Assembly (NCBI GenBank): GCA_030265395.1
Contig: JARFYF010000012.1
Span: 19,910,046-19,974,045, forward strand
Direction: 5' to 3'
Origin: Rhina ancylostomus
Taxonomy: Eukaryota
DNA length: 64,000 bases
Shown here piece after piece: positions 595 through 64,000 of this stretch. Position numbers and translations under genes: made by a program. Below the pieces are notes generated by a model. The model had not been told where the DNA came from. It did not search any database and worked only from the letters and a program-made list of their open reading frames with translations. How positions within the stretch are numbered: the first letter of the stretch is position 1; each line of letters starts with the position of its first letter.

Positions 595-1935
595 GGCAGT
601 GGAATCAGGTTGAACATGGCAGAAATTGGAGGATAATCCGTTGAATGTGTAGGCTATTAGGGTGGAAGATGATGACAAGGGAAACCTTTGCTGTGATTCC
701 TCCACCGAACCTATCTCCCGTAAGATCTCAGTACAATTTTCATGGTTTCTGCACTTTTGTCATATCTCACCTAATGGTGACACCTTCCATATTAATGTTT
801 CTGTGATGTCATATTCCTTTAACTATAGTTTTGGTTCCTTCATATTTAAAGAGATCTCAACTGTGTTTGTTCCATTTTCTGCATTTCTCTTCTCACTCCC
901 TTCTCCACTCACAGAAAGGAAAGGGTTCTACTAGTTCCTGCCTTCCCACCATCTTGCTTCAGTGGACTTTCCTCTAATTTCTATCATCACCAGATACATT
1001 TTCCCCTCCCCTCCACTTGCAGCATACTGGAGGGACTATTCCCACTACAACTCAGTGGTTCACTCTTATGTTTCTGCTAATGTTGCTCATCACCCACCTA
1101 CTACCGTTGGAACTGCAGGAGATGCAATGTCTATCCCTTTACCTCTTCCCACCATCCAAAGATAGTCCCATTATGTGAAGCAGTGGTTCATTGTTGGTAC
1201 TTCCAGTTTTTGTCTCCGTTCACTTCTCATGTCATTGCCTCCTTTGCATTGGAAAAATCAAAGGTAAATTAGGTAACTACTTTGTAGAGCAACTCCTTTC
1301 ATCTCTCAGGAGTGACCCTGAGCTTCTATTTGTCACTTTAATTCTTCATCCTACTTTCATTCCTACATCATTTTTGGCCTTTTACATTTTTCCAGTGTCT
1401 CATCTTCTTTGCATATTACAGCCCTTAGGACTCAATTTAATTCAGCACTTTCAGATAATCAGTTTTCTAATTGATCAAACTGAAATGTTTACTTTTTTCC
1501 TTTCTCCATAAATGCTGCCTTACCTGTTGAGTATTTTAGCATTGTTTTATTTTGCATATCAAGCATTTGCAGCATTTAGTATCTCAATTTCAGCATGGTT
1601 TTCTTTACTACCTCCCTGTTTTTCTCTTTCATCTTTGGTTTATATCTCGTCCATAAACATCAACTGTGATTAACAAATACCCTCTCAGCTGGCATTGCCA
1701 CTGCTACCTTTGCTATTTAGTCTCTATTGATCTCCAACCTGTCACAGAGACTTTCTTTTGTTCTCACCACCCTTCTCCCTTGTCTGCAACTCTAAACATA
1801 TTTGATTTCCCAGTTCTGTTGAAACATCATTGACCTGAAATGTTATTTGTTCCTCTCGCCACACATAGGAATGTTGCTTGAATTGCTAATAATTTTCAGC
1901 ATTTTTATTTCAGATTTCCAGCACCTACAGATTTT
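595..1935 (+). mobile_element. Penelope-like element remnant (GIY-YIG region plus tandem 3' tails; short inverted 5' piece at ~600-690)
   Basis: ORF 1191-1511 contains LLCIGKIKGKLGNYFVEQLLSSLRSDPEL, a decayed YIGETKRRLGDRFAEHL. Tail motif (tgctgcc..acctgttgagtatttt(c)agcatt) occurs twice and matches 49380-50370. Confidence 0.75.
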
Positions 1936-1992
1936 GGCTTTGTATTTAGGTAATATGCAGATTGTTAATTTTTTATTACCCACTCTAAACAG

Positions 1993-2062
1993 GATCCAAC
2001 TCATGCATGGAGTGGTGGATTGGACCTTTCACTGAAAATGCGTGATTTAAACACAGACCAAG
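1993..2062 (+). CDS. BUB3: BUB3 coding exon (DPTHAWSGGLDLSLKMRDLNTDQ)
   Basis: ag at 1991-1992, gt at 2063; 70 nt; translation matches vertebrate BUB3. Not in the ORF track. Confidence 0.95.
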
Positions 2063-2737
2063 GTGAGAAATGTTTGTGTTAAACACGCTGCTTAAGGAGG
2101 TGCATGATGTGATAGAATACACTTTTGAAGTAGTGTAGGGGCAGCAATGAATTTAATCGCCTTTCATAATGTCATTCCTTTATGTAATTAAAGTGGGGAA
2201 AGAATACTTGAGCAAAAATTATTTAAATTATTTAAATTAAATTCTAGATCCTAATCAATTTCACTGTTTACCTGCAATTCATATTTGCTGTTTATTTGAT
2301 TTGNNNNNNNNNNNNNNNNNNNNNNNNNNNNNNNNNNNNNNNNNNNNNNNNNNNNNNNNNNNNNNNNNNNNNNNNNNNNNNNNNNNNNNNNNNNNNNNNN
2401 NNNTTGTGACTAAACAATTTGTGAATGAGAACAGCTGCTAGTATCAGCAGCTTGAGATGAGTGGAAAAATAATGGAAGACTAATTTATACTAATTTTGGT
2501 CTTTGAGATCCCATGGTATATATCTGTGTAGCCAGTGCACATGGGAAAACTGAATGCTGTACTGTACATTGTCTAATTAGAAGGGTTTATCCTGAGAACC
2601 TTCAGAATATCATCCATGGTACAAATGAGTTTTTAAAGTTTGCTTTTGTTAAACAAAATAGTCACAGTTTGTGATGGGACAAATATTGTGTTTTCTTGAT
2701 ATGATGCTCATGTCAGTTAATTTTATCTTTCATATAG

Positions 2738-2889
2738 AATCTATTGTGGGTTCCCACGATGCTTCGATTCGTTGTGTTGAATACTGTCCGGAAGTGAATG
2801 TAATGGTCACTGGAAGTTGGGATCAAACAGTCAAGCTGTGGGATCCTAGAACACCGTGCAATGCTGGGACATTTGCACAGCCAGAAAGG
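2738..2889 (+). CDS. BUB3: BUB3 coding exon (SIVGSHDASIRCVEYCPEVNVMVTGSWDQTVKLWDPRTPCNAGTFAQPER)
   Basis: ag|...|gt, 152 nt, WD40 GSWDQTVKLWD motif, phase-compatible with neighbouring exons. Confidence 0.97.
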
Positions 2890-5800
2890 GTATGCAGTGC
2901 TATTGTTATAAAATAAATATTTTAAATAAAACCTGACTGTTGAATACCATGTAAGCAAATATATGGTTATAGCATTTCTTAGACCAAAAATGCAGGTTAT
3001 TCAAATGCAATGTTTTGAAACCTGACTTTGGAAGTGCAAGTCGGATTGTTATTTATAAATCTGTTCTTGTCCAAAAGTGTATATTCCCCTTGTGCAGAAG
3101 GTAAATTCATGACTCACCGTGTTTAAAATATTAAATGAATTGGTATGTTAGACACACAGAGTCCTCCATATTCAGAACAAAGATGCACAATTTTGAAAGT
3201 AGAGCTAGGTTATTCAGGAATGATGCAAGAAAATATTCCTCCTTGCATAGTAAAGAAAATCTAAAGCTCTTGTCACCCAAAAAGCTGTTGCAGCTGGATC
3301 AGTAGACATTTTTAAAACACATTTTTGGCAAATTATTAAGGGTAATACATGTAATGTGAGTAGATACTGTTAATGATCAGCAGCGATGTAACTCACTGGC
3401 CAAATTGGCTTGACGGGCTGAATGATCTACACCTTTTATGTAAAATTTTGTTTGTAATGAACTTGCCTTAGTTTTGTTTTGATGAAAGTTATCTATGTCT
3501 TTGCCTCGAGTAATAAGGATGATTGATTATGTTCCCATTTTCATATGTATAAACTTTTCCAAGTTGATAACTGAAATCTGTTTTAGAATGGGGTAAACTT
3601 TGGTTTCCTAGTGTTGAATAATTTTGCATATGGGGGTAAAATGCTGGGAATTTGAACATATGCAGAAAAAGTTGCAGACGCAGAGGAAAACAGTCAGTAT
3701 CTACAAAGAAGAAAGATAAGGTTTTGGTGTCCTTGACACTGACAACGTTTATTGGACTTAAGCTATCCTCGTATTTTTTTGGCATTTTGGTGGGTTGAAT
3801 AATGCCTTTGTCTAGAGGACGGGAGAATTTAACCTGTGTCCACGTGGAGTCTTATCATACATAGCTCGTATATTTTGAGGCAACAGTGGAATCATGATAA
3901 ACTTCTATATTATTTATTGTTCCTCTACGTTTTTTTTCCCCAAATTGGGGTATAATATGAACAGTAGATTGGTATTTGTATTGTAGAACCTTAAATGTTA
4001 CCAGCACAGATGTATTTTCAATTGTCTTGAAGTAATTTTCACCTTTTGCACATTGTAATATATAGATAATGTTCAAATCTTGTAGTTATAATGGTTATAA
4101 TATAACGTTCAGAAGTTAACCCCCCGCCCTAAGCACCGTATTACTACATCATTATTTACTGCAATATCTACTAACTGGCCATGAAGCTATTCCATTACTC
4201 TTAGCCTAATTTTTTTTTAGTAATATCTTTGTTTAGTGAAAATGGGTTGTGGTGAATGAGGGTATGATTTATAGCATGTTAGGTTCCAAGAGCCAGTGAT
4301 GAATCTGTGACAGAATGGAGTGGAACAGACAGGCATTGTCGATGAAACTGTTTATTGGTTCACTGGGATTCATTATGGCATCAGGTTTTTTATCTGATTG
4401 AGTAATACTATTCCTGATGAATGTGTGCACAGAGTAGACTGGCAGAATCTGCATGACCCATCAGCTCTATCATTTGATTTATGAGTGCGTAGGAGTTGGG
4501 AATATCAAACTTGCAATGCGGAAAATACCTGACAACCAGTATTTCAAAGATGCACATGCAATACATGTAATTTAAACTATTGATACAAATTGCAAGCTTG
4601 AAATCAGCAAAATCACTTTTTTAAAACTGCNNNNNNNNNNNNNNNNNNNNNNNNNNNNNNNNNNNNNNNNNNNNNNNNNNNNNNNNNNNNNNNNNNNNNN
4701 NNNNNNNNNNNNNNNNNNNNNNNNNNNNNNNNNNNNNNNNNNNNNNNNNNNNNNNNNNNNNNNNNTTTCCATCTGGAATTCCAGGATGTGTATGGTATCT
4801 TAATTTCAGTGCATTGTGTGGTTTTAGTCTTGAAGCTACTTGCAAATTTGAGTATTAGCAAATTTCCATAACCAGGTATGCTGACTCTGGATTTGGTAAT
4901 GCAGGCTGAAGAGTAGCATTCTTGTCCAATGAAGTATCAGCCCTAGCTCACCTGCCTTGTAGCAGAGGAGTTTCCAGCAAACTTAAAGCTAAGGTAGTCT
5001 TGGGCAGACTTTCTCAGATTTGCCCACTAGACCTGATGCAAGATTCCAATTCGGATTAGTTTATTGTCATAAACTTCAGGGTGCAGTCAAATTACTTGCT
5101 AGCATGAAGCTCACAGAGTAAACACTATACATGGTATTAATAAATACAACAATAAATACAATGATGAGTGCAAAATAGCAGAATGGTGCAAAGGTTGTTG
5201 TGTAAAAAGAAATGCTAAAGTAACAATAACAAAATAACCAAGAGGGCTAGAATATAATGCCACCTTGAAATCAACAGAAAAAAAATGGCTATCCACGGAA
5301 TTTTTTGATTTGATTTTGGTTAATTTAAGTGTATTTAATTGTTTTTGTGCAACAGTTTTGTGCCCACGTGTTCTTTGTTTGAATTTCAAGTGGGCAGGCT
5401 TCACGGGTTGTAAGTGCCTTTCTGGATTTATGTCCTTGGAGATCCTGAAATTTGCTTGGCCATGGTGATCAGCTGATTGCAGGCCTCACAGTGGAAGATT
5501 GTGCCTGGGATCATAATAGGGGAAAATGTGTCTTGAGGGCTGCCCAGTCAATGGATGATGCAGTGCATAATTTTCACTGTGTAGATATTTTAGATATTTG
5601 GAAAGTCCCAGGAGACATATAAGATTATACTTAACTATTATATTGCCTAGCTTTTAGTTTTCTTAGATTTTTAAAAATAAGTTTTGAAATTGTTTACCAT
5701 GATTCATCAATGTCAGGTTAAATGAGTGACTTATTGGGAATAGTAAAATGGAAGGTGCTGTGTGTATTGAGGCTTGCAGTTGCAGTGCTGCCTTGTAATA

Positions 5801-15270: not shown

Positions 15271-16808
15271 AGCCAGCAGAATAATAGGGGAAAATAGATA
15301 CATTGGTAATGCTGAAGTCTTAAATGTAGGGAATTAAAGAGCAGTTTTTAAAATTTTATTATTTGACAATATTGCAATTATACTACCACAGACTAGAGGT
15401 TTTTAAAGAGTTTATGCACAATTTACTGACAATGGGCAAAAGCCAGCATATAAGAATGTGCTAATTATCCAGCACAATGTTTTAAAAAAATTGTACTGTG
15501 GAATGGCTCTCTGCAAACAACTGGCCTTGTACCCAGATATAATTAATCATATTGCAGTGTTTATGCTAATTAGACAATTGTGAACTTTTATGAAAACTCA
15601 CGAAATGAAGCTTGTTCTTGCTCCAAGGACATTAATGGGCAATATTTAAAAGCTTTAGAATTTTTTTTTGTTTTCCTAAGAAACAGACTTCAGTAATGTA
15701 ACCAGCAAATGGCAGTGTAGTTTTAAAATTTTCAGTTATTTAAAAGATGATTTGCTTTCTGATATATTTGCATCAAACCACTTGATGTATTAGCTGAAGA
15801 AATTCTTAAAATAAATTAAATTAGAGATGCTGCATGATTGTGCTGGATTTTGGCACAGTTGAGCATACAATGTTATACAAATTGATCTATAAGGAAACGG
15901 GAGAGAAAAGCACTTAAAATCTTGCATATTATGCACCTAGTTTGCTGTTTGCTCCCTGAGCAGAAACACATTCCCCTATTGTTTCATTACTTAGCTGAAT
16001 AGGTGGACAACAACACTAACCATCTTGAGCATTTACAAAAGGCCCATAACTTTGAAAGTAACCTTTGTTTAATTTTAGGAGTGATGGATCTTGATGCTAA
16101 TGATCTGGAAATCAAAATAGATTAGAGGAGATGGGGCAGTTTGGGGAATTTCTGAACATTTTTAGGCTGAAATATTGTATTTATTCATTCATGGAATGGA
16201 GACCTCATTGGAATGATTGTTTATCCTTGTTGCCCTTGGAGATGTTGTCTGCTCAGTATATTATCTATTTGAAAAGCCTTTTTAGGCTGTATTTCTGTGT
16301 TTTTACCCCTGATCTAAAGGTTATAAATAATAGATCTTTGTCGGAAATTGAAAGCAGCAAGATTAGTGGGAACGTGTATATTTTACTAGAAATCCAGAAA
16401 ATCGGAGAAAAAATAGGCGACTTGGCTCTTTGATTGTGCTCTGCCATTCAGTACAGCCATGGCTAAAAAGCAGCGTGCTTGGTTTACATTGAAAACTGAT
16501 GAACTGTGCAGAGCTGATAGAAATTTTTAGTTTTTGCAAGCTGAAGTCCTTATCTCTTGTGTTCGACCACTAATACCATACTAAAACACCATTTGTTTAG
16601 AGCACCTGATTTCAAATAAGACTGAGAGAGATTTCAAATGAAGGACAACTTGAGCTTACTTAATATATTGACCTTTTAAATGTATTGAAATACTTAGCTA
16701 CTTGGTGACCATCAACTCAGATCAGCAGATATAATATTTAAAGCAGTTTTTTTTTTAAGTATAAGAAATGTAGCAGTAAATTACAGTAAACATTTTTTTT
16801 AAATTTAG

Positions 16809-17025
16809 GTGGCTCTGATGGATTTGTGAATATCTGGGATCCTTTCAATAAGAAAAGATTGTGTCAGTTCCACCGCTACCCCACCAGTATTGCATCGCTT
16901 GCCTTCAGCAACGATGGCTCTGTTATTGCAATAGCATCATCATACATGTATGAAAAAGGTGAAATAGAACACCCTGAAGACAGTATCTATATTCGGCAAG
17001 TGACAGATGCGGAAACAAAGCCCAA
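16809..17025 (+). CDS. BUB3: BUB3 coding exon (GSDGFVNIWDPFNKKRLCQFHRYPTSIASLAFSNDGSVIAIASSYMYEKGEIEHPEDSIYIRQVTDAETKP)
   Basis: ag|gt...cccaa|gtgag, 217 nt; if unspliced the frame ends K-TGA at 17027-17029. Confidence 0.97.
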
Positions 17026-17576
17026 GTGAGTTTCTCCTCAGCTGGCTTTTATCCTTTCTACCATTTGTCCAAACATTTATTAATTTTTCTAATTTCACGA
17101 AAGAAATTGATGTTGAGTAGATAACACAGTTGCTAGCAGAGCTAGTATTGATTCTATCTTGTTCTTCCAAGCTTTCAATATCCGTTGGATGATAGACGTC
17201 ATATTGATAAAAATGTGCCTACTTGTTTTCTCAGACAGCATGTCAAATGTATCTTTTTTGTGCAGTGCTGCTTGGATCAACAAACGTTTGGTCTTTTACA
17301 TTAGAAGTATTCTCTCAAAATTTCATTTTTCTGTGTAACATTGGTCAATTATGGAAAATTCTTATATTGAGATCTGTGCAATTTTCAGCAGTAATAATTT
17401 GTTATAAACAGCAATTAAAACAGTAATATATGAAATGTTTCAACTGCTCAGATATGCTGATTCTTGGTCTAACTGAAAGTTCATCAGACTTCCAATCTGA
17501 ATTTGTGTGGCAAAGGATCAAAAAGATGACAAATGGCTATCTACCGTAATTCTGCAATTTTTAACCAATGTTTGTA

Positions 17577-32000: not shown

Positions 32001-34894
32001 TTGTTGACTGGAAGTTTAACAATAGTGACATTGTAGACACGGCTGATTCCATTTTCACCAAATTCCTACACATATGCACTTTTCAACAGGAGTCACTAGA
32101 TTGTGATCAGGAGGAAGAATTTTTACTGATAGCCCCAACTCAAAAACAGTGAAGTTAATTGTAGTTCGCCCTCTATCACCTGCAGGAGATCTATATTTTG
32201 AACATGGGATATTTCTAATTTGTGTCATGATATTTGATGCATCGTGGTATCCATTCCAATGGATGAGCTTCTACTTGATAATCTTTTAGTTGCTGAGCTT
32301 CTACTGCACTGATATTCAAGGACCTTTTTGGTACATGTATTTGTTACCTTGAATGTAAAATGTCCTTTTTTTTTACATTCTTAATGCATTGTTTCCTTCT
32401 GTTCTGCCTCATTACATTTATTTGTATTCAGTGGTAGAAGTAGTGGCGAAACAACATGTTGATTATGCTATGATTGCCAAAATAGTTTTCCCACAAGTCC
32501 TATTATGCCATCAGTGTACAGCTCTGACCAGTCAAAGGTGGTTTCATGTGGAAAGGAAATTAAAAATAAAATGTGATTTACCTTGGGCCATTCTAAGCTT
32601 GGCCTTTGGAGATTAACTTTGTCGTGTTATTATCTACAGTTCTGAAGAACGTGAAGAATAAATGAATATATTCTGAATTAAACATTTTTCTCCTTGTCAC
32701 AAACAAGCACTGCTTTGATCATTCTTAAAATGGCAGCATCTCAGAATTTCTCATTGCCATTTATTTTAACAAATAACTTGTCTAGTCATACTGTCTGTCT
32801 GAAGGTGGGTAATCTCAGCGCACTTCTTTTGAACCTTTCATTTGTTATCCATTGTACTTGCCCTTTTGACCAGAACTCCTGATAAAAATCAGACATTTGT
32901 GAAATGGGTAGAATATCGGAAATGATACTGGAAGAAGGTCAGCCTGACAATTATCTGCTGAAGGAGTTAATTTATTTGTGGTCAGACATGGGATGCTTTG
33001 TTCATGACAAGTCACCATACGCAGTACAGGAGGGTAATCCTAAGGACTGTTTTATTTATTTTAAAGGAGGTTGCAGATATCATTTTACTTGGTATCATTA
33101 TGAAATCCCATAAAAGACTGGGCATAGCCTCTTACTTTGTCGGAATGAAAACCCCTTTGTACATTGTTCTGAAATAAAATTGCATGGTTAAAAATAGAGC
33201 ACTCAGGGCAATCGAGGAAAGGGTTGTAAAGGTAGTTGCTCAGCCCAATAACATTACAAACAGAAAACAAATTTAGTTGTGAACATTGGGAAAATTTCCC
33301 GTCATTAGCAATCCAAAATTCTCTTTCTCACACTGCACAACTGACAAAAAAGCATAAATTTACCCAACATGTTGAGTTCTAGGGCAGACTGTTGCCTTAC
33401 TTTCAAAACTGAGCGAAGTGCTCTCTTGGACCTTGTTTAATTCTATACAATGTTATGTTCCTCAAGCAAGCAGGAATTTACTTTGAATATTACTTTGAAG
33501 TCAGGGGCATTCATGCAGGCCATTTTCCAGTGCAGAACATCCACCCATGTGAAATTATTGCCTGGATTGTTGGGGAATCATCTATGCACTTGGCCTGCAA
33601 AAACTCAGACCCTCACTAAAATTCAAACTCCACCCCAGTCACCTCTTTCAGGACTATTGGGTACCACTGCAGAGGCACTGAGTTTTTCCAGCTTCTCCAG
33701 TTGGCGAACAACTCTAACTATGCAAGCAACTTGCCACACAAATTCAAGTGAGGTTCAACAGTGAAAATGGTTCAGTCCTCCAACTACTTCCACTGGATGG
33801 AGAACATCAGCTTCCTGCCCATGGGTCTGAACACTTCAGGTTTGACCCCATTTTAACGGCCTGAAAAGGGACAAGGGATATAACCAGGATTGCTTTTCAT
33901 GTTAGTCATCAGTCTTCCACAATTTGCTAGCTGTAAACCAAATTGGCTGGGTTGAAAATTTTAACTGAAATCGATCAAATCGGATTGAATTTTTCNNNNN
34001 NNNNNNNNNNNNNNNNNNNNNNNNNNGTTTATATTTGAGGCTGAAAATACTTGGATATCAGGCTTCAATGTTTAAAAGCATTGAAGGATAACAAAACAAT
34101 AAGTATTTCTAGTTTAACCTCAAGAGAAATGCAGCTAAGAGCAAGAATGTTGCATTATTTCTTTCAAATCTTTGTTGCAATATGTAGTAAAAAATGCAGT
34201 AAAATTATATTTTTACTGTAATAACCAGTTATTTGGTGCTCCAAAGTGAACTTTTTTGAGTGAATTAACTTATACTAATCCACATTTTCAAGAGTTATGC
34301 TACTAAAACAGCACAACAGTACTGCTGTAAAGCACCATGTCTACTGAATATTTGCTGTCACCAGTATCATGGTATTGTCCTCTCAATCGTGTGAAGCTAC
34401 TGATGGAATGAGATATAAAGTTGCACATACCGATCCATCAAGCAGACATTCCTATAATTATGTAGATTAAATGTATGTGCATTATGAAATTTCTGATAGT
34501 CATTTGTGAAATATTACATATTTATTCCATAGTAATGATTTTGGAGTCATTATTCTTTATGTTTGAATATCATCCTGGATATAGGTGCACCCACAGTTGG
34601 CCTGTGACTCAGAACAATGCAAGATTAAACCCCAAACATTAATATTCTAACTACCAACAAAAAAATAGCTATCTGATCTTCAGACTCTGTAAGAAATAGA
34701 TTAAGCTTTTCTGTAATGGTGTATGGTATCATCTGAGTTCCTTAATTAAATCCTTCCATTATGTAATTTGTCTGACAGCCAGTAGTTTGTTGAAATAATC
34801 TATACATTCACTGACTATTTCTTTTGAAAAATATATTTTAAATGTTGAGAGAAAGAGCACTAAACCAAGACACCAGAAGAACTGATAGCTTTTC

Positions 34895-35103
34895 ATTGAA
34901 TTGCATCATGAGATTTCTTACGTTCACTCAGGCAGGGAAATGAGGGCTTGTTTTACTTACAAAGGAACGCATTTCCAACAACGTTGTACTTGTTTACTAG
35001 TGCACTAGGCTATCTGACTTAGTTCCAAGTTCAGGATAGTATGTAGTTTAAACCCATGTGCTTTGATTTGGGAAGGGGAGTGTTAATAGATGATCCAAAC
35101 TGA
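34895..35103 (-). mobile_element. DeuSINE (SacSINE1-like) degenerate copy
   Basis: catgagatttcttacgttcactcaggcagggaaatgagggcttg resembles the reverse Deu core; a tRNA-like head follows. Confidence 0.55.
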
Positions 35104-37119
35104 TATTTAAGTAATATAGTTTGGGGACCACCAAGATACATTTTCCTAGGATGCTGGATGCTCAATCTTCAGGGATACCAGGGACTGCAAGATTTAAAGA
35201 AGTTCATTTAAACAACATAGCAATGCCCTGGGAAGTTTTTTTTCTGCTTGGTTTCTCATAATGTTGAATTCCACCCCCCCCCCCAGTACTTAATGATCTC
35301 AAGTTTCTTTGTCCAAGTTGTTCACCATTTTCCCCACTAGCACAATGCTGCTACCATTGAGTTGATGAAAATGACAGATTTGTAGTCATTGGAGCAATGT
35401 AGACAGGCACCAGAAAGCTCAGGATATACCAGAGATGTTGAGAACCAGCACACCTGAACCTTGCTTTGAATGATGCCAAACACACAACCTGCCTTTACTG
35501 GGGCAAAAATTAGCAGGAGAAACAATAGTATGAGAGCAGTATGTGAATGCTTGATTAACCATACTGCTAGATACCTTTTCAGGAGTATCTCAGTTGCAAC
35601 ATGTCATGCTTTAATAGTGATCATCAAAAATAGTTTGCCCAAATAATTAATAGCCATCAAAGCTTGATTCTCTCACCTGCCAGGATGCCCATAAAAAGAA
35701 CCAAGAACAGAACTACCAAGAACCAATTTGTCTTTATGGAGGCTTAAAGTCCTGGTCTCTCATTTCTCTAGTGAAGGCCAGAATTAATGCATATTAGAAA
35801 AAGATGTTTTTTTTTCCAGACCTGTGAACGTAGTTGCAATGAGGCTTCAAGATGCCTATTGTAAAATCTTGAAATGTGTTTCAGAGCCTTATTATTTATG
35901 TTCTGAACTGTAGATCATGAAGCTAAGAAAGATGTCTGACCAGCACTGCAGAGTCCGGACATCAGTCACCCATGGTTTATTTTCAAATGGTTTATTTTCA
36001 AAGCAAACTCTAGATTAGTAGCATTAAAATTCAAAATTATGTGACCGGCCTCTCACAATTTCTTCACTTTAGTAGAATGACTAATTCCTTGATAATGTTC
36101 AGTGATCCTTTGATGTAGCCTGTAAAGACAAAGACTCCATCAAGTGGACACTCTGCTGGGCAATTCAATTATTTATTGAAAATTCATTCCTTATTCTCAT
36201 TATTTGGCAAGATCGGGAGAAAAAGCTAAGTCTTGAGGCTCATATTGATTTACTGGACTGAGGCTATGTGGAATGATCGAGTGGTAAGGAAGTTCAGGAC
36301 ACTATTCAATTTAGTAGTCAGAGACCAAGTGATCCTTCTTGTGAAGTAAGGTGTGTGCCTGGGGCTGATGCAACTCTACAAGTGTCCCACAGAGTTGGGT
36401 AACATTCTTCTAACACATTTCCCTGTGGAGATTAATGTCTGATTTTTAAGATTTGTAATCCCAGTGGTCTAGGTATCACCATGTCAGNNNNNNNNNNAAT
36501 AAATACCTTATGTGCTGGACTCTGATTTCCTCTAATTATTCTTCACCCTCCTCTTCACGACAAAGAAGATCCATTTTCACGCACCAAAATTATAAAGAAA
36601 GTTCCAAAGTTTTTACAGATACATCTTCACAAAACCACCATGCCACTTAGCAACAAAGACATCTACTGGGAGACACTTCTTTAGGGTTTTTTTTACCCCA
36701 ACCACCATTTTTATACCAGCATGATTTTGAGTGTTAGTTTGGGGATGCTAATTGGAGAATATTCTGAAATACCTTGGTTTTGGCCACACATTTCAATTTG
36801 CACACATCAGAGTCGGTTCACAGTAATGGGTACTGACTGGTTGCATTGAAGCTTTGACCATTAATTTTTATGGTGAAAAATAATATATCACATGCTTTTT
36901 AATAATGCTGAAAATTTGCTCGACAGTGCAAAGGAACATCAAGCCATAAAGACTTTGGGTGAGTTTAGTGGAATATCAATGTAAAGTTCAGATAAGTGTA
37001 AACCTTTTTGTGCCTTTTGTCTATAGTTTCCACTGATCATCCAGTGAGTTACAATGGGAGGTTGGGAGATCCCTTGTGGAAGTAGCATCTGTGTTATTTT
37101 TAGAAGGGAAAACAGCTCC

Positions 37120-37280
37120 ACTGCATTGAATAACATTCTTCCCTCAATCAATATCACATAACCAGATTAATAGGACATCATATCAGTGTCTGCGGGATCT
37201 TTCTGGATGCAAGTTGCCAGATGTGCCTATGCAGTTAATCCAATGTACATGAAGCAAAGTGAAAGCTGTTTAAGTATGTT
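37120..37280 (+). mobile_element. DeuSINE 3' part
   Basis: cattcttccctcaatcaatatcacataaccagatta...tgtctgcgggatctttctggatgcaagttg, homologous to 20915-21080. Confidence 0.55.
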
Positions 37281-38139
37281 CACAGATGCAATTCTTTGTG
37301 TCAATCACATCAAACAGTACCTTTCTTTCAACATTAAAAATTATGCTATATCTACATCCATGTCAATTTAAGACCATTTTTACATGTCACCAAAAAATAT
37401 GCAACATATTTAAGTTTACTGTGCTATATTCAAAGTTCCTTAGTGTTTGTATTTTTCTAGGCATTTCAATGTTCAAGATTTATTGGTAAATTTTATTAAA
37501 GTCAAAGGAAGAGTTTAAGGTCATTTAGTACAGTTGGCATTGAGTCTGGGGCACTGTGCAGATTTGTGTTGGACAAGAACTACTATTCTTATTACCTTGT
37601 TAATATACAGCAGCAAGGCTTGTTTAGAGGAAAAAAAATTGTTTCCAATAAATTTTTCTGTTCCTTTTTGATTATAAGACAATGCAGCCCAATTTGAAGC
37701 GGACATACCCAGTAGAAAACAAAAACTTGCACTCAAACTTATTTTCTGGAATGAAAATAGTAGTGGGAATTTGCAACCACAGTTGAAAGAATTAAGAGGT
37801 ACCTTAAATTTGTCTAAAATATACTGGTTATTTCAAAGCAAACACAGCATCATCCTAGTTCTTCACTTGAAAATGAAGATTGATATGATCTATCTAAACG
37901 TGCTTTGTATTGCCTAAAAGGCTCCATTTTTTTTGATATGCAGGCCAGAAACCATTAATGCAACAATGAAATAGATAAAGGTCCAGTTACATTTGAAACA
38001 TTTCTCCAAATACAGAACATGAAATCTCAATTTCAGAAGAAGAAACTTTGCTTTCTTGTTCCATGAAACTCTAATGCATGCCTAACTGCTAATCCTGGCA
38101 CTCAATAATAACCACAATAGTGTAGACTCAGTAAGCACA

Positions 38140-54551: not shown

Positions 54552-57177
54552 AATTCACCAATTTCCCTTGTTCACCAGCATCCCATTCCTTATGATGAGT
54601 TAAACAATCTCCAGCGTCTTCACCATAAGGTCTCCAATGGGATGAATGGCAGATGCCAGTTTGTCCCTAGATGGCACCTACAGTACTCGAACAATGGTCC
54701 TTACCATTCCTCACTTGTTTTGCTTATAAATTGGATTTCTTTTTTTTCATTATGTGTAATGATAGTGCCAAATTGGTCCCCTATTCTCCCCCAAACAATT
54801 GCAAAATTATCTCCAACTATGTGCAAATTATGTTGCTGTGGTGCGATGATACATGATCCACATGGGCCCAGATAGGAATAGCCTCAGGTCAATGCAACTG
54901 GTGCCACTTTTCTGTGCAGCAATTGGAGATGGGTGTCAGCCCTTAAAGGCAAATTCCCCAGGGGAGCAAGACGGCAGAACACATGGAGGAGATGGAAGTT
55001 CCAGGAGAGAAGTAGAGAACTCTCGGATTTTCAGAAAGGGACAAAGGTGATCTAATAATGGAAGTACATGCCCAGAGAGAGGTCCTGGGGAGCCAGGAAA
55101 CCCTTCAGATCTACCACCAAAAGATTGTACCCAGAGTCTGCAAGAAATGATTCTCTCTCTTCTGTTTTGTCTTTGCAGGGTATGAAAAGAGGCTGCCTTT
55201 CCTTCTTCCCCCACCTTTTCCAATCACCAGGAGGCTGCTGTGATTGAAGATGAGGCAATAGAAATGTAGGAGCAAATGGTGGCTGATGAAGATGAGCACA
55301 TAGCCTACCTCATAGCACACCTTCATAAATTTGTACCATAAAGCGTGAGCAAATTAGGTCAGAGGGCTTGTGACCTGTGGAGAGACACCAGGAATTAGTA
55401 GGCTGTAGTTAGACAAAATCTTGGGTATCAAGTGTGGGAGTTGCCAGAGAGGGAGGGGAAAATTCCTCTATAGTCCTATAGGGCAAGGTTCTCAGATAAG
55501 GATCAGGAGGCCTTCACAACAAGGCTGGTGTGGAGGCATACGGAGATGTTTTGCACATTGTCCAGGTGCCTGACTGAATGCAGGAGGTACCAGAGTGTGG
55601 TGTATTTCAATTCAGTGTTTTTGCAGGAAACTGTGCAGACCCAGGACTGTATCGTTTCTACTTCTGGCACGTCACCTATTTCACAATGGTGGAGCCAGAT
55701 CAGCAAGGTAAGGGAGGGTTCTACTGCTGGGCACCCATACTGGACATACAGCCATCCATCTCATGCCTGGGTTTCTGTGGGAATTTATTCTCTGCCCTTG
55801 GGACCCTTGATTCTATCGGGATAGATATCAAGATCAAGGAAACAAATTCAAATGCATGTTCAAATTCTGGCTGTGAAATTTTGATTATATTGGCAAACAT
55901 TGTGAGCTATTTCAGACTTATTTATTGTTGAGTTCTGCATCATAACTGCAAGCAAACATTTATTCAATGTACTTTTATTTTAGCAGNNNNNNNNNNNNNN
56001 NNNNNNNNNNNNNNNNNNNNNNNNNNNNNNNNNNNNNNNNNNNNNNNNNNNNNNNNNNNNNNNNNNNNNNNNNNNNNNNNNNNNNNTTTAGCAGAATTGT
56101 AAGTTTTGCACTGATTTCCATATTTAATCCTCAACCCATTAGGTTCTTTTTCCATACTTCCACTCAAGGTCCTGACTGTTGCTACAGCAAGGAACACAGG
56201 TGCTGTTAACCTTCCTGGAACTCCCTAAATTGACCATTCTTGTGAGTGTGTCAGATCCTCTCATACCATGAGGGGGCTACAGATAAGGCAAAATGTGTCA
56301 AAGTGCTAATTATTTAGCAGAAATTCAGTATGCTGACCTTTACACTTTTTTTAGACTTTCAAATGATAATTAATTAAGCGCAAATGGCTTAATTTGTTCT
56401 GTGTTTTTGTTATAATTACACCAGTGTTAAATTGCATAAGTACTTATAGAACCATGCAAGGAAAATAAATTCCAGATTTATCTGGTCTCTTTCATAAAAC
56501 AGCTTTTGCGTACAAATTTGCAGTAATTGCTGTACTCAGGTGTTTAGTTTCTAATGTGTGTGGAGGCAGTAAGCCATAATTGTTGGTCTTTCACGACTGA
56601 TGGTGCTTCAACCTTGTCTGAGCAGGGCATTGAAGTTAAATGTGTAGGAAACACAAATGATGTCTTTTTGATCGGACAGTTGCTTCAGGCCATCAGACAA
56701 ATCTATCTTCAATGGTTAGGATCTCCTATTCTTGTCACGGACCAACGAATTAAAAAGAGTCTGACCAGTACTTACCTTTTGGTCTAAAAAACTGTCTGGT
56801 AAACATATGCCCACCAGCTATAGCCTCACAGTTGGACAGCAGGCTATCAGCCGAAGACCATTTAGGCACTGTGATTAATCTGATGGAAACAAATACACTG
56901 CTGTTCAGAAAAGTACTGGAGCCTTCCAGTCTCACCCAGGAAAGCTTGTTACTGCTCTTAGATTTTAAGCAATCCTGGCCAAGATAAAAGTGAGAACTCT
57001 GAGTTAACAACTTTGATTAGCTAAGGATCCAACTGAAGCAAGAATCTAGGAAAAACATCCTTGAGATTTGAGGAAATCATTATATCTTCATAAAGACCAA
57101 TGTGCAAAGACAGTAGAAAGATGGGCAATACTTTATGCAGGATTAGAAGGTAAAATGAACCAGCTTGGAGGAAGGTG

Positions 57178-57428
57178 GGTGGCACGGTAGCGTAGTGGTT
57201 ACCATGACGCTATTACAGCACCAGCGACCCAGGTTCGATTCCCGCTGCTGCCTGTAAGGAGTTTGTACGTTCTCCCGTGTCTGCATGGGTTTCCTCCGGG
57301 TGCTTCAGTTTCCTCCCACATTCCAAAGACATATGGGTAGGTTAATTTGGGGTTTAAAATGGGTGGCGTAGACTCGATGGGCCGGAAAGGCCTGTTACCA
57401 CGCTGTAAAATGTAAAAGTAAATAAAAA
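57178..57428 (+). mobile_element. Full-length V-SINE (tRNA head, V domain, CR1-type tail B)
   Basis: ggcacggtagcgtagtgg (A box), ggttcgattcc (B box), V domain, tail gatgggccggaaaggcctgttaccacgctgta. Confidence 0.9.
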
Positions 57429-57879
57429 AGTAGTGAATTCTGAGCTGCATATCCTGTTTAGTGCTGGGACAGCTTACAAAAGGTGTATTCATGCCAAATT
57501 CCAACACAAACTGCTGGATGGGATGAAGGGTGCTGGAATGGTTTTAGAGACTGGTGTCAGAAATAGTGCTGGTCTTTGGATATTTTGTAAAAGAACTTTG
57601 GACATGGAGAATGATATTAAGATCCTGGCTTAACAATAGGGAGGTGCACTCTCAGAGATTGGGGATAAGTGTCAAAGGAAGCTGCAGCCCTGTCTCCTAA
57701 CCTCACTCATTTTATTGCAGCTTCCCAGTTGAAAGCATTAGATTATGGCATCACTTTGTGTACAGAGAAAAAAGTGACAGCAAGAATAAAAACAATGTAA
57801 TATATTTGATGTACAGTATACCAGATAAGGCTTAAAGTTCCTTGGATGGCTGCACTGTAAATATTGAATGAGTCATTAA

Positions 57880-57971
57880 GTGGTACAGAAACAGGCCCTT
57901 TGGCCCACCATGTCCATGCTGCCCATTGTACTTATACTGATCCTATTTGCCCACAAAGCCTTCAATGCCTT
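57880..57971 (-). mobile_element. CR1 LINE 3' tail running into gap
   Basis: gtacagaaacaggccctttggcccacc, same tail type as 61345-61400. Confidence 0.7.
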
Positions 57972-58429
57972 NNNNNNNNNNNNNNNNNNNNNNNNNNNNN
58001 NNNNNNNNNNNNNNNNNNNNNNNNNNNNNNNNNNNNNNNNNNNNNNNNNNNNNNNNNNNNNNNNNNNNNNNNNNNNNNNNNNNNNNNNNNNNNNNNNNNN
58101 NNNNNNNNNNNNNNNNNNNNNNNNNNNNNNNNNNNNNNNNNNNNNNNNNNNNNNNNNNNNNNNNNNNNNNNNNNNNNNNNNNNNNNNNNNNNNNNNNNNN
58201 NNNNNNNNNNNNNNNNNNNNNNNNNNNNNNNNNNNNNNNNNNNNNNNNNNNNNNNNNNNNNNNNNNNNNNNNNNNNNNNNNNNNNNNNNNNNNNNNNNNN
58301 NNNNNNNNNNNNNNNNNNNNNNNNNNNNNNNNNNNNNNNNNNNNNNNNNNNNNNNNNNNNNNNNNNNNNNNNNNNNNNNNNNNNNNNNNNNNNNNNNNNN
58401 NNNNNNNNNNNNNNNNNNNTTCATTAAGA

Positions 58430-61340
58430 ATCAATGAACATTAATGCCAAGGAATCATAAATACTTTTAAATATATCCAATTTTTGTGTGGGCTTTAATC
58501 CATATTTTAACAAATTGCATGAGCAGCACTCTAATTTGCCAACCCAGTCATTGCTTATGAAACCTATCCTTGGGCTGATGGGGGTACCCAAATATTTTTT
58601 AAAAGATCCTGGTGCAATAAAATATAACTCATTACTATTAATGGACCATTTCTTGATGGAATTAAAAACATAAAACCCAAACTTGTAGTTCTCACAAGAA
58701 AAATCTCAAACTTGTTTGAAAATGTTATTGTATGACATTAGTCATATAACCTCACTGGCAAAAGCCAAGTTGTTACAATATATTTTACTTAGAAGCTGCA
58801 GTCCTCCCTATCCAAGGACACAATAAAACATCTATTTCCAAGTTAAATAAAATAAGGGAGAGAAGATCACCCTGTTTCACTTCCCTCAAAATAGGGGTGT
58901 GTCAGATTCTGGCCTTGCCATTTCCAATAAAAGTGGATGGATTAAAATACAGATTCACAATTGGAGTGATGAAGTGGGCAAGACATCCATGTGGCCAAGA
59001 GGTTTTGACCCACAGGGTCAAAGACCTTAGCAAGGTCTATAAAACCATGGCCAGGTCCCTTGTATTCTGATTGGGTCTGGTTTTTCAGATTATTCTGAAT
59101 CAAAGGTCCCAAAGAGCACAGAACAAGTTTCCACCACACCTGAATTTTTGATAACAACCAGAGATGGACACAAAAAATAATTTTGCCAGACATTTAGGCT
59201 GATCACTTCAACCAATCCCTTAGCCAAGATCTTAGTGAACAGCCTGAATCGTGATAGACGCCAATTATCGACGTTTCCAGGTTTATTGGACTGTCTTACT
59301 TTAGAACATGGACACTGCAGCCATTCTTACGATCGGCTGGTATCTTGCTGCACTTCAGCCAAGAACAATAGAGCTATTTTAAAATATTGAAGTCCATCTT
59401 AGCAATCCCACTTGAAGTGATGCTGTCTGGGCTGGCAGTGATATTCTTTAAACCATCAAAGCATAAAATCTCAACTGTGCTAACACTATGTAAAAAACCT
59501 GTTATTGTTACTCTGAGCTAAGCAAGGGCTAAACTTCGCAATGTTGGCTTTATTATTAAAAACTGCAAACCAAGATTTAAAATGGGTCTCTATAATGTCA
59601 ATGGCTAAAGGGCAGATCAGATAGGTTGGTTTGCCCATACTGTCTCACAAGGATCCTTCTATTCTCTTTATACATCTTTTGCACCAACATAAATTCTCCC
59701 TTCTGGTTATCAAATCTCTTCCTTACACTAGAATTAAAAACTTCATTTCTCTGTCATCTCTGGAGTGTCAGTCACTTCTTGGGTCTCACCTTACACTTGT
59801 GTTTCTCAGATATATATCTACAACCCTGGTCAGTAAGCTTTCATGTTTCTTCTCACTGCCAGTATACTTATTAATAGCTAAAATTTTCCCCTTATTGAAT
59901 GGCTGGGTTACAGAAATCCCATCTTTGCTATTTGAACCCACAACAAAACTATTATTAAAGAAACCATTCTTTAGCCATTACACCATTGCCCATGGCTGTC
60001 CTATCAGCGCTAACAATATTCTCTACAACCTCAACTTCATCCTCACTTACAAGGGTGACAGCATAACTAACATCTGTCTTATCCATACCCACCTCAGCTT
60101 CATCCAAAGAAGCACGTCTTCCCTCAAGCACCACATGCCTTTTTATATAGTTGGCCATGCACAATCTTATCGTCCAGGATTGCTAGAGACCTGCTACTGC
60201 CCAACTCACTGGTAATAAAAACACTCAATGTTCTTCTCATCCTCAAATGCAAGGTCTGACTGAAAGAACCCATCCACTTCTTTTTTGATCCAGATGGACA
60301 GAGATTTCCCTATTAACAACACACTCACTCCTACAAGAATTTGCATTAGTACTAGATGGTCTTTTAGAATTTCTCAATACAGGGTGCCTGTGATGTTCTT
60401 GCTGTCTAAGGCTGATCTTAGAAAGAAACAGGATACTGCATTCAGAACAATGGAGAGACCCAGTTCCCTCCAGACCCTAGTCAGTCCCATCCCCACTACT
60501 ATTTATTTATTGCTGATCTCTCCTTTGCATTTCACATAGTGGCAGATGATTGACTGCCATCTACCAATTTTGTCACACCTACCACACTGAGCTTTCATAT
60601 GAACACCAGCACGGAATGTATCAAAATGTTTCTTAAAAGGATCAGAAGCAATAAAACCCTCATTACAAATACTAAACTTAAGATTTTTGACTTGATAACT
60701 GACACTGACTTCCTTTAAAACCTCACTGGTAGAATTACCATTAACTATAGGACCACTATCTTTTAAAAGAGTATCCCCACCTCTTTAAAATGGGCAGTCT
60801 AAAACCAGAATCTAAAATTGGAGACTTTAAGATGACAGAATTACAACCTAATTTTTAAAAATTCCTCAATAAAAACTTTACATCCATCCATAGAAGCAGG
60901 TATTTGGAGCTGACTATTCAAAATGCTAAAAATCAGAACTAAAAAGGACCCAAACTCTCCCAGGGCTTTCCTCTTCATGTGTATCTTCACTCAACAACCT
61001 GGGTTGAGGCACCTGAATAACCCTGGGAACTAAAAATCTTCCAATTAAAATAAAGTCATCCTCTGTGGTTTGTGTTTCCAAAATGATAACCAGCCTAGCA
61101 GGGCTGAAGATGGCCTGTCCTCAGTATCTGCATTTATTACAAGTGGTCCCTGTGGAGGCCTTTTCATTATTTTAGCAGCATTATTTTTCCAGTGGCAACC
61201 CCACCTGGGCATGGAAAGATCATTCACAAGCATTTCTTACTGTCAGACTGTTTAATGTCAGAGCCCAGCAATTTCTAGGAGGTCCACTTAGCCAGTAAAC
61301 TCCATCACCCAGGAGGAAACACATGAAGGTGGGACTGCAC
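58430..61340 (-). mobile_element. Decayed R2 non-LTR retrotransposon, clade A-like (3 ZnF, Myb, RT; 3' RLE end not seen)
   Basis: Colinear minus-strand peptides: degenerate ZnF FSICNEG..KKHFDTFR; CCHC QCGRCDKIGRWQSIICHYVKCKG; C2H2-type CSECSILFLSKISLRQQEHHRHPVLRN; Myb WIKKEVD..AFEDEKNI; TASPDSITSSGIAKMD; WLKCSKIP; DNWR-ITI/RLFTKILAK; DLAMV-IDLAKVFDPVG; VKQGDLLSLILFNL; LAFASE; WSINSNELYFIAPGSFKKYLG; LKPTQKLDIFK. Many stops and frameshifts. Confidence 0.9.
61282..61335 (-). ncRNA. Degenerate HDV-like ribozyme at R2 5' end (P1 5' strand missing)
   Basis: Minus strand GUCCC-ACC-UUCAUGU-GUU-UCCUCCU-GG-GUGA(UGGAGU)UUAC-U-GGCUAA-GUGGAC follows P2/P3/L3/P3'/P1'/GG/P4/J4-2/P2' order. Confidence 0.6.
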
Positions 61341-61342
61341 AA

Positions 61343-61604
61343 TTACACAGAACAGTACAGTACAGAATAGGCCCTTCAGCCCACAATGTTGTGCTGACAT
61401 AGCTATACCTTCAGAATGCCCATATCCCTCTATTTTCCTCTCATTCGTGTGTCCATCCAAGCCCCTCATAAAAGCCCCCAATGAATTTGCCTCCACCACC
61501 CCATCAGGCAACACATTCCAGGCATCCACCACTCCCTCAGTAAAAAAAAACATACCCCTCACATCTGTTCCGAACCTATCCCCTCTCACCTTAAATGCAA
61601 TCCC
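61343..61604 (-). mobile_element. 5'-truncated CR1 LINE 3' end
   Basis: agaacagtacagtacagaataggcccttcagccc tail; ORF 61305-61625 FKVRGDRFGTDVRGMFFFTEGVVDAWNVLPDGVVEA is the CR1 C-terminus. Confidence 0.9.
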
Positions 61605-61749
61605 TTGTTGATGGCATGCAATCATCTGTCACTATGTGAAATGCAAAGGAGGTATCAGCAACAAATAAATAGCAGTGGGGATGGGACTGACTAGGGACTG
61701 GGTCTCTCCATTGTTCTGAATGCAGTGTCCAGTTTCTTTCTGAGATCAG
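61605..61749 (+). repeat. Inverted copy of the R2 zinc-finger segment 60412-60567
   Basis: Reverse complement aligns with about 10 substitutions and an 11-nt deletion. Confidence 0.95.
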
Positions 61750-61959
61750 TAGTGTACCTCCTAAGATACATAGTGTGGCTCACTGTGACTAACATTGGTA
61801 ATCACTGCCTGTTTGGGGGAAAGAGGCCACTGTCCATGCAATCTAACCATGTCGCTGCAAGCAAGTTTTTCATTATACCTGTACCTCACCACAAATGACA
61901 ATTAACTCCATTTGACACTCACCAGTTTTCACTGATTACCTCCTCCCTATTGTTGTGAG

Positions 61960-62350
61960 TGTATCTGCCTCCAAGACCACCTCAGGCAGTGGAGCACACC
62001 GATTCCAACCATTCTATTGAAAAAAACTCCACCTCAGATCCCCTCTAAACCTCCTACCTCTCAACTTATACCCATGACATTGTTTCAGATACTTCCACTG
62101 TGGGAAAACAATTACCACTACCTACCCTGACTAGACCTCTCATAATTCTGTATGCCTCTATCAGGTCACACCTCAGCATCCTTAGCTCCAGGGAAAAACA
62201 AACCCAGCCTACCTAATCTCTCCTTTTAACTGAAATAGCATCCTGGTGAATGTCCTCGGCACCCTCTCCAGTGCAATCACATCCTTCTCATTAGTGCGGC
62301 AACCAGAATGGCACACAATACTCCATCTGTAGCCTAACCAGTGTTTCATA
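61960..62350 (-). mobile_element. CR1 LINE fragment
   Basis: ORF 62209-62427 contains KDVIALERVPRTFTRML. Confidence 0.85.
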
Positions 62351-63339
62351 TCATTGTTCTGAACCCTTGGAGAGATACTGGTGAATGGTGAATTGTGGCT
62401 TAATATCTTAGAATGGAATTTTGCCACACTCCTAAGAATATCATTCTTACCAATTTCATGAACTTGTGTCCAGCAATCAAGTCTTTGGAGAAAGTTGAAT
62501 CTAAGGGGAGATGGGTATATGACTAATCTTCCAAGTTTCTCCAGAATTTGTAGTGCAGCTTGTAGATCAGATTAAAGCATCTTGCGATAGTGCTGATGGC
62601 TGAACAGCTGGTGTACTTTATTAGGTTACTGCCTGCTGAGATTTGTCTCCCACTTTCATTACTCAATCGAGGGTGTGGTCCTAGTTAGATAAGAAAACTT
62701 ACTCTTCTGCATAGGTAGGTTCTGCATAACTGGTTAACCTCCAATGCAGATATAGGTTGGTTCTGACCTCCAGTGCTTAAGATTCCTGCATGCAATTAAA
62801 TGGCTCATTTCCTATCAGAAGGGAATGTGCATTCCAAATGTTACAAATTTCCAAGTATGTTTGGAGGTTTTTAATTATTTTTATGAGTTGGCAAGTCTAT
62901 CAGACAGCTGCTGAACAAAATGTAATTGTCCAAGCCTTGAAGTATTATCACAGCATGACTGCCTGAACTGACAATGTCAAATATGTGCATTGCCTGGAGT
63001 ACTCCTTGCCATGAGTTTTGTGCCTTTTATCTGGTCTGTGTGTTTCTCAGACTGAGCTGACTTCTCTTTCGTTCGCTGCTATAGCTGCATTTTGGGCAAA
63101 AAAGCCTTTCTTCCTTTGCTGCTCCATGCTCCATCAAATTCTCCACCCGGAGCACCCATCTCCACTNNNNNNNNNNNNNNNNNNNNNNNNNNNNNNNNNN
63201 NNNNNNNNNNNNNNNNNNNNNNNNNNNNNNNNNNNNNNNNNNNNNNNNNNNNNNNNNNNNNNNNNNTCCACTAATCCCATTTTATTTTCCCACATTCACA
63301 GCAACTCTTCCCTCTCACACCCCCCCCCCCCCCACAACT

Positions 63340-63520
63340 CCTATACACTGGGGCAATTTACATGACTGATTAACCTATCACCACATCCTTGGAATGTGGG
63401 AGGAAACCAGAACATTCAGAAGAACCTATGCAGTCAGAGAGAGAACGTGCAAACTCCACAGTCGGCATTGGAGGTTAGGATCGAAGCTGGGCCACTGAGG
63501 CAGCAGCTCTCTGTGTCACC
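63340..63520 (-). mobile_element. V-SINE
   Basis: ttggaatgtgggaggaaaccag...gagaacgtgcaaactccac is the reverse V-domain. Confidence 0.8.
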
Positions 63521-64000
63521 CTTTCCTGATTTAATGTTAAATTAAAAAATAACTATTTTTTCCCCACTAATGTTTCGTTTTCAGATGTAGTGGGATTGAT
63601 CTGAGTTTTTAAACTCTGAAAATGATTTAGAAAATGTGCATCAAAGATTACATAAGAAATATAATTTCCTTTGTAGTCTTGCATCACCTGCTACTAGAAT
63701 ATTTATTTTTTTGTATTCACTTGTAAAAGTTATAAAACTGTTTTTAGGACACCTAAATAAGTTGTTTGTATTTTGTTTAATAGTATGATTAAACAAAATG
63801 CTGTACATTATATGAAATAATGGACACATGGTCAGAAATCCAAAATGTTAGCAACTCATATTTTCCTCTCACCCTCACGTAGATCCCAGGTTACATCCAG
63901 GTGTCTGTTGTTTCAGGTTAAAAGTTGCTATGGTTTTAAAACAGTTACTGTTGTATCTTTAGACAAAATATTGCCACTTTTTGCCAAGCAAATAAAAAGC

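Follow-up and report, generated by a model that had tools for sequence, protein, structure and literature searches.

The window, a stretch of 64,000 nucleotides of the Rhina ancylostomus genome, contained a decayed copy of an R2 element on the minus strand. Remnants of the R2 protein were found in two regions. The zinc fingers at the N-terminal end of the R2 ORF were decayed and lay at 60360..60667 (−), where tblastn matched residues 196-285 of intact R2 (E 2e-8) and BLASTP gave E 4e-7. This remnant matched all three finger regions of intact R2, as in lineage A. The decayed reverse transcriptase (RT) region was located at 58463..59275 (−) by a tblastn match to residues 615-907 of intact R2 and by its tree placement. 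The element ran into a stretch of N, and its 3' end was not visible. On its 5' side the element was bordered by LINE repeat sequence at 61948..62350 (−), identified by repeat matches. No 28S likeness was found in this flank (p=0.68), and the window copy was not seen to be inserted at a 28S target site. LINE sequence lay on either side of the element, and no copy bridging the two flanks as one LINE was found. Elsewhere in the window, WD40-repeat exons of a host gene were seen at 2662-2913 and 16790-17026 (+).

The decayed family and its intact relative

An intact R2 was found in the rDNA of the same genome. It occupied 863-5071 of locus L038 (G000:C188), carried a 1291-aa ORF with three zinc fingers, and was flanked by 28S on both sides. 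The best named relatives of its protein were from Scyliorhinus and Chiloscyllium. Its ribozyme was canonical, with P1' pairing with 28S at −28 (7 pairs, −11.8 kcal/mol). Phylogenetic analysis was performed from the RT to the C-terminus, using FastTree with 62 rows (one copy of <130 residues was dropped) and IQ-TREE with 30 of these rows. The window copy and the other decayed copies formed one clade (FastTree 1.00, SH-aLRT 100). This clade was sister to the shark-type rDNA R2s, including the intact element (FastTree 0.86, SH-aLRT 98.6). The sister position was less sure than the clade itself, and the decayed rows were long branches. No intact member of the decayed clade was present among the loci retrieved from this genome. 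The RT piece of one family member had R2 proteins as its best solved-structure matches (E 5e-25). Pfam gave nothing meaningful for six decayed pieces, and word-index protein searches with decayed fragments gave zero matches. We found no description of this decayed R2 family in the texts that our literature searches covered.

In a separate search, 878 RT candidates were considered as R2 insertions and rejected. At 29 of 40 sampled loci the match was a single piece of 330 nt that lay within a short repeat. This repeat of about 600 nt (L095-L134; for example, L117 at ~4630-5200) was TA-flanked, had short terminal inverted repeats and was MITE-like, and we presume it to be Tc1/mariner. It carried the 330-nt piece, derived from the RT of the decayed R2 family, internally, and its pairwise identity was ~76%.

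The ribozyme core of the window copy and its relatives

The whole HDV-like ribozyme core was placed at 61282..61335 (−) by the sequence, a covariance model and alignment to other copies. On this strand, the P2 5' strand GUCCC (61335-61331) was followed by P3 ACC (61330-61328), an L3 of 7 nt (61327-61321), P3' GUU (61320-61318), P1' UCCUCCU (61317-61311), GG (61310-61309), a P4 hairpin of 4 bp (61308-61295), J4/2, and P2' GUGGAC (61287-61282). The C at 61291 in J4/2 was presumed to be catalytic from its position. This was the order described in the sequence-only reading, and all parts were found at the letters it had given. The full order P1-P2-P3-L3-P3'-P1'-P1.1-P4-J4/2-P2' was present in the window copy, with J1/2 broken by insertions. 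The reading had taken the motif for the remnant of an HDV-like ribozyme at the 5' end of R2, and had proposed HDV-like descriptors for the minus strand and a consensus rebuilt from other copies. A covariance model of nine other copies, with the window copy excluded, gave the motif 69.2 bits (E ~5e-13, a rough calibration), compared to 16.7 bits for the best unrelated match. A second match in the window, with 27.5 bits, was a displaced piece of J1/2. In addition, the core could be aligned to the ribozyme of the intact R2, which is canonical. The identification was thus upheld by context and homology.

The ribozyme core was found at 17 other loci of this genome, which is a lower bound, and the HDV order and pairing were kept. 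These loci were obtained from genome DNA and pattern searches, followed by model searches of the fetched loci. Matches in the three pattern searches numbered 22, 6 and 8, against 7, 5 and 1 in the controls, and only model-confirmed matches were kept. For the analysis, 15 of the 17 loci were used; C28558 and C14366 were excluded as near-duplicates of C7445. Core pairs formed in 85% of cells, compared to 22-53% when slid. Covariation in P2, P3, P4 and P1.1 within the family was not significant, being reached by 46-149 of 500 shuffles. When five rDNA-lineage ribozymes were added, one P2 pair was found to change from C-G to G-C between the decayed family and the intact R2 lineage, which was a single inherited event.

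The core letters of the window by themselves were weak evidence for a ribozyme, and the identity of the motif came from context and homology, not from the letters alone. A family-blind descriptor, set at the looseness of the window copy, matched dinucleotide shuffles (0.3 matches per 64 kb; at least one match in 15 of 60 shuffles) and gave two further matches elsewhere in the real window. This descriptor missed 16 of 17 control loci, the intact R2 among them. It was thus loose enough to match by chance and yet too strict to recover the controls. No ribozyme family was matched in an Rfam search of 55000-64000, and RNAalifold gave no consensus structure for the family. These three results would fit a motif that resembles a ribozyme by chance and does not descend from one. 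However, the motif lay at an R2 5' end, aligned to the intact R2 ribozyme and recurred with HDV order and pairing at the other loci, and we regard a chance origin as highly improbable.

The sequence-only reading had noted mismatches in P2, P3 and L3. Those in P3 and L3 departed from the family majority. The one in P2 was common to the family and not a sign of decay: 14 of 16 rows had C at this position, and 14 of 15 had U opposite it. According to PMC3774820, about a third of R2 ribozymes are mismatched within the first five pairs of P2. In the window copy, P3 contained a C.U mismatch and P1.1 a U.G pair. In the decayed family as a whole, pairing was seen in 92% of the P3 cells and 84% of the P1.1 cells. 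In L3, a C-to-U change was found relative to the family majority. The presumed catalytic C was retained in 12 of 15 family rows. Three near-duplicate copies on small contigs (L146, L018 and L078) all had no catalytic C, and upstream sequence was common to L146 and L018, which probably represent a single duplicated locus. The contig of a relative had 0 listed changes from the window copy in the 54-nt core, where ~1.6 were expected, and 10 listed changes (12 in all) over 421 nt; these numbers are too small to inform on selection on the core. The P3 mismatch was common to both. The window copy is probably dead, since its P3 is mismatched, its P1.1 contains a wobble and its J1/2 carries a long inverted repeat. 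Among the listed holders of the sequence there was none from RNA. Residual activity of its ribozyme is conceivable, given that PMC3774820 describes a Nasonia ribozyme that is active despite a mismatch in P3, as well as J1/2 loops of >700 nt.

The P1 strand, the leader and the 5' boundary

The P1 partner had been described as absent. It was found ~600 bases upstream of the core as GGGAGGA at 61941..61947 (−), which were the first bases of the element and the point where family homology started. Read from 61947 to 61941, this strand formed 7/7 pairs with P1', the first being G.U, with −10.5 kcal/mol. The 28S sequence GGCGGGA, which the sequence-only reading had put forward as the P1 5' strand, gave −5.5 kcal/mol and 6/7 pairs with G.U counted. 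The element's own strand was therefore the stronger partner, and 28S need not have supplied P1. The 5' end had been called nearly full-length; it was retained and actually complete, though split by insertions. The predicted cleavage site is just 5' of G61947. A further sequence, AGGAGGT at 61756-61762 (−) on an insertion edge, had 6/7 potential pairs with P1' and could be a degenerate duplicate or chance.

J1/2 of the window copy had been lengthened from about 105 to 605 nt by later insertions; the leader upstream of P2 was 86-118 nt in 13 other copies. The start of the leader, with the family TAATCAG motif, was aligned to these 13 copies at 61915..61940 (−), and its middle was located at 61752..61842 (−) by the family profile (E 3e-15) and by the 27.5-bit covariance-model match. 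Between them lay a high-copy repeat fragment at 61843..61914 (ends approximate), which was missing from other family copies. The contig depth was ~34,000-38,000 in bin 61841-61907, compared to ~7-10 in the adjoining leader. The insertion at 61607..61749 was a copy, in inverted orientation, of 60412-60564 of the same element, with 86% identity over 153 columns. The 3' tail of a high-copy LINE, presumably CR1/HER1-like, occupied 61345..61606 (−) with a depth of >100,000, loose ends at 61345/61349 and many matches in unrelated loci. The inverted copy, whose source was 1 kb away, adjoined the LINE tail on its 5' side, and it was perhaps a templated insertion made as the LINE integrated.

A 5' end was present in 14 copies, namely the window copy and 13 others; C52 and C2 had no 5' end and were left out. 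The leaders reached a mean pairwise score of 29.5. The flanks upstream of P1, at 18.7, were no closer to one another than random sequence (17.6). Since the flanks were unrelated among copies and the leaders were related, the decayed family starts at P1. Pairing with P1' was scored as the best 7-mer within five offsets of the boundary, and was 7/7 in 3 copies, 6/7 in 5, 5/7 in 4 and 3/7 in 2. P1 with a purine first and G.U allowed reached 7/7 in the window copy and at least 6/7 in 8/14 copies. The weighted pairing sum at the boundary was 182, compared to 112 ± 10 at random flank positions, where the maximum in 20,000 draws was 155.

Matched P1 variants were found among the copies: GGTTGGA/TCAAACT (C57), ATGAGGG/TCCTCAT (C7), AAGAGGA/CCCTCTT (C1b) and GGAAGGA/TCCTTCA (C74). 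When own and swapped partners were compared, the permutation test, which ignores relatedness, gave p=0.003, and five decoy anchors gave p 0.30-0.82. Removal of C17, in which a deletion adjoins P1', raised the value to p=0.02, and removal of C17, C7 and C57 raised it to p=0.12; narrower offsets gave p 0.10-0.12. The P1 covariation among copies is thus suggestive only. T was found at the expected G1 position in 5 copies.

These data were also considered with respect to a parent that used 28S GGCGGGA as P1 and cleaved at −28, the purine run of the element being incidental or a decayed duplicate of 28S. The 6/7 pairing of 28S with P1' is in keeping with such a parent, 28S out-paired the own P1 strand in 4/14 copies, and C7445, whose own P1 was poor, was 28S-like from about −29 to −3 directly upstream. 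The 5' ends including P1 were weakly like 28S from −28, a score that 19 of 425 other windows reached. However, this likeness was gone when P1 was removed (35/429 windows and 60/400 shuffles), and the likeness of the leader after P1 to a captured piece of 28S was not significant. The 28S duplex was weaker than that with the own strand, and 13/14 copies had no 28-nt 28S leader of the kind that −28 cleavage left on L040. We judge such a parent improbable. The pairing and boundary results suggested that self-cleavage in the decayed lineage probably needed no borrowed rRNA, unlike in the intact R2 of this genome. We consider it fairly probable that the own first seven bases paired with P1' in this dead R2, and that the parent RNA would have been cut at its first base and not 28 nt up in 28S.

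The parent lineage and its relation to rDNA

The sequence-only reading had argued for an rDNA-resident parent from the supposed 28S P1. That argument fell away, and such a parent is still likely from junctions that resemble 28S. Among complete 3' ends of the decayed family, 2/3 resembled the 28S target (background 0.0003). The L055 junction, from a copy without a 5' leader whose family membership came from the tree, matched the target at 11/12 positions and continued as decayed 28S for ~40 nt. L044 matched at 10/12 and L028 at only 4/12. L021 and L049 ended 25-35 nt short of the model end, and 28S was not visible there. Against local background, 3/14 5' flanks were 28S-like (p about 0.001 each). 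Against a common background, 2/14 were above the 99th percentile and a third equalled it; the likeness was in register with the junction. Two such flanks were not reached with any of 40 decoy 28S windows. The summed 5'-flank test gave p=0.08 without C7445. Because some of the 5' and 3' junctions were 28S-like, it is probable that the R2 protein had kept its recognition of the 28S target. The parent would then still have been directed to rDNA, and the copies that survived would be those that went elsewhere.

The analysis turned up no member of the decayed family within rDNA, and masters outside rDNA were weighed as well. In such a family, non-specific or relaxed in its target (R2NS-like), the same ribozyme with its own P1 would have freed the RNA from read-through transcripts. 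Long upstream 28S was present in 0/14 copies with a complete 5' end, compared to two fossils of the rDNA lineage (L041 and L053); 11/14 flanks had no clear 28S likeness, and the copies lay on many contigs and differed in P1. However, the 28S-like 3' junctions of L055 and L044 speak against this explanation. In addition, the rDNA-specific lineage was dispersed too, with 12 non-intact loci, so dispersal alone proves nothing. The decayed copies, with a mean pairwise identity of 62%, are too decayed for the young-copy criterion as given in PMC5035012. We therefore hold this explanation to be rather unlikely. It is likewise doubtful that a chondrichthyan R2 escaped rDNA, moved its P1 partner to its own 5' end and gave rise to compensatory P1 subfamilies, as a vertebrate R2NS of relaxed specificity. 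If that reading were true, the fossils would record both a shift of the cleavage site and a loosened target code.

The rDNA-lineage fossils gave a view of −28 cleavage. L040 (G000:C246) began at 913-936 exactly at 28S −28 in unrelated DNA, with ~24 nt of 28S; judged by this junction, it is a fossil of −28 ribozyme cleavage. L050 had downstream 28S. The dispersed fossils of this lineage (L039-L057) were ~41-93% identical to the intact element at the protein level, and some older ones had an L3 of 8 nt, compared to 7 in the intact R2. A 28S copy with an empty R2 site was also seen in L020 (G000:C7, ~800-2100). It was unlike the 28S of C188, and an N gap separated it from a CpG-rich region with what we take to be a ribosomal-protein exon. 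L020 is possibly a mis-join or foreign sequence.

For the preferred account, in which the parent RNA was cut at its own first base, the following course may be proposed. Master copies in rDNA would have been transcribed together with rRNA, and the ribozyme would have freed the R2 RNA at its own G1. The full-length RNA would have been copied as far as G1. At times the R2 protein would have inserted the RNA at chromosomal sites loosely like the 28S target, and these stray copies would have persisted after the lineage was lost from rDNA. The window copy would later have gained the three J1/2 insertions and the substitutions in P3 and L3. As a locus, the window copy is a dead fossil. Since gene insertion into rDNA makes use of vertebrate lineage-A R2s, the natural off-target sites and 5' module variants may be of some use. 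The genome held both designs of R2 ribozyme, an intact one with a P1 borrowed from 28S and an extinct sister with its own P1.

An HDV-like ribozyme frees R2 RNA from its co-transcript with rRNA (PMC3774820). According to the same source, Drosophila simulans, tick, sea squirt and tadpole shrimp have the cut at the boundary of the element, and in most others it lies within 28S. Cleavage at the R2 boundary was thus already known, and the decayed chondrichthyan family is a probable further case. It shares with the boundary-cleaving R2s the HDV-like fold, a P1 5' strand inside the element and a long J1/2. Compensatory P1 differences, as among the decayed copies, are reported there for Drosophila R2 ribozymes. 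Unlike those R2s, the decayed family is from a jawed vertebrate, has three zinc fingers and is represented by decayed copies outside rDNA, and its cleavage is predicted. Cleavage at −28 is predicted for the zebra finch and white-throated sparrow R2s (PMC3774820, PMC11331408). These R2s and the intact R2 of this genome have the same core order as the decayed family and related proteins, and J1/2 was ~108 nt in the intact R2, compared to 86-118 nt in the decayed family. However, P1' of the −28 R2s pairs with 28S GGCGGGA, whereas that of the decayed family matches its own 5' end. A shift between the two cleavage designs, including a captured 28S leader, was modelled in PMC3774820 (Fig. 8 legend). 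Here the probable shift was in a jawed vertebrate; the vertebrate cases in the cited literature cleave at −28. R2NS-1_SMed and R2NS-1_CSi are also R2 copies outside rDNA, and as described in PMC5035012 they belong to flatworm clades D and C, with copies >98% identical to the consensus. In contrast, the decayed copies are old, and some of their junctions are still like the 28S target. More than one R2 lineage co-existing in a shark has been reported (R2Sqj, PMC5035012; PMC13188248), and the chondrichthyan R2s, including R2Sqj (PMC5035012) and the expansion in PMC13188248, are from the same host group as the decayed family. As described there, the survey of PMC13188248 annotated top matches flanked by 28S, and decayed dispersed families such as this one lie outside its scope.
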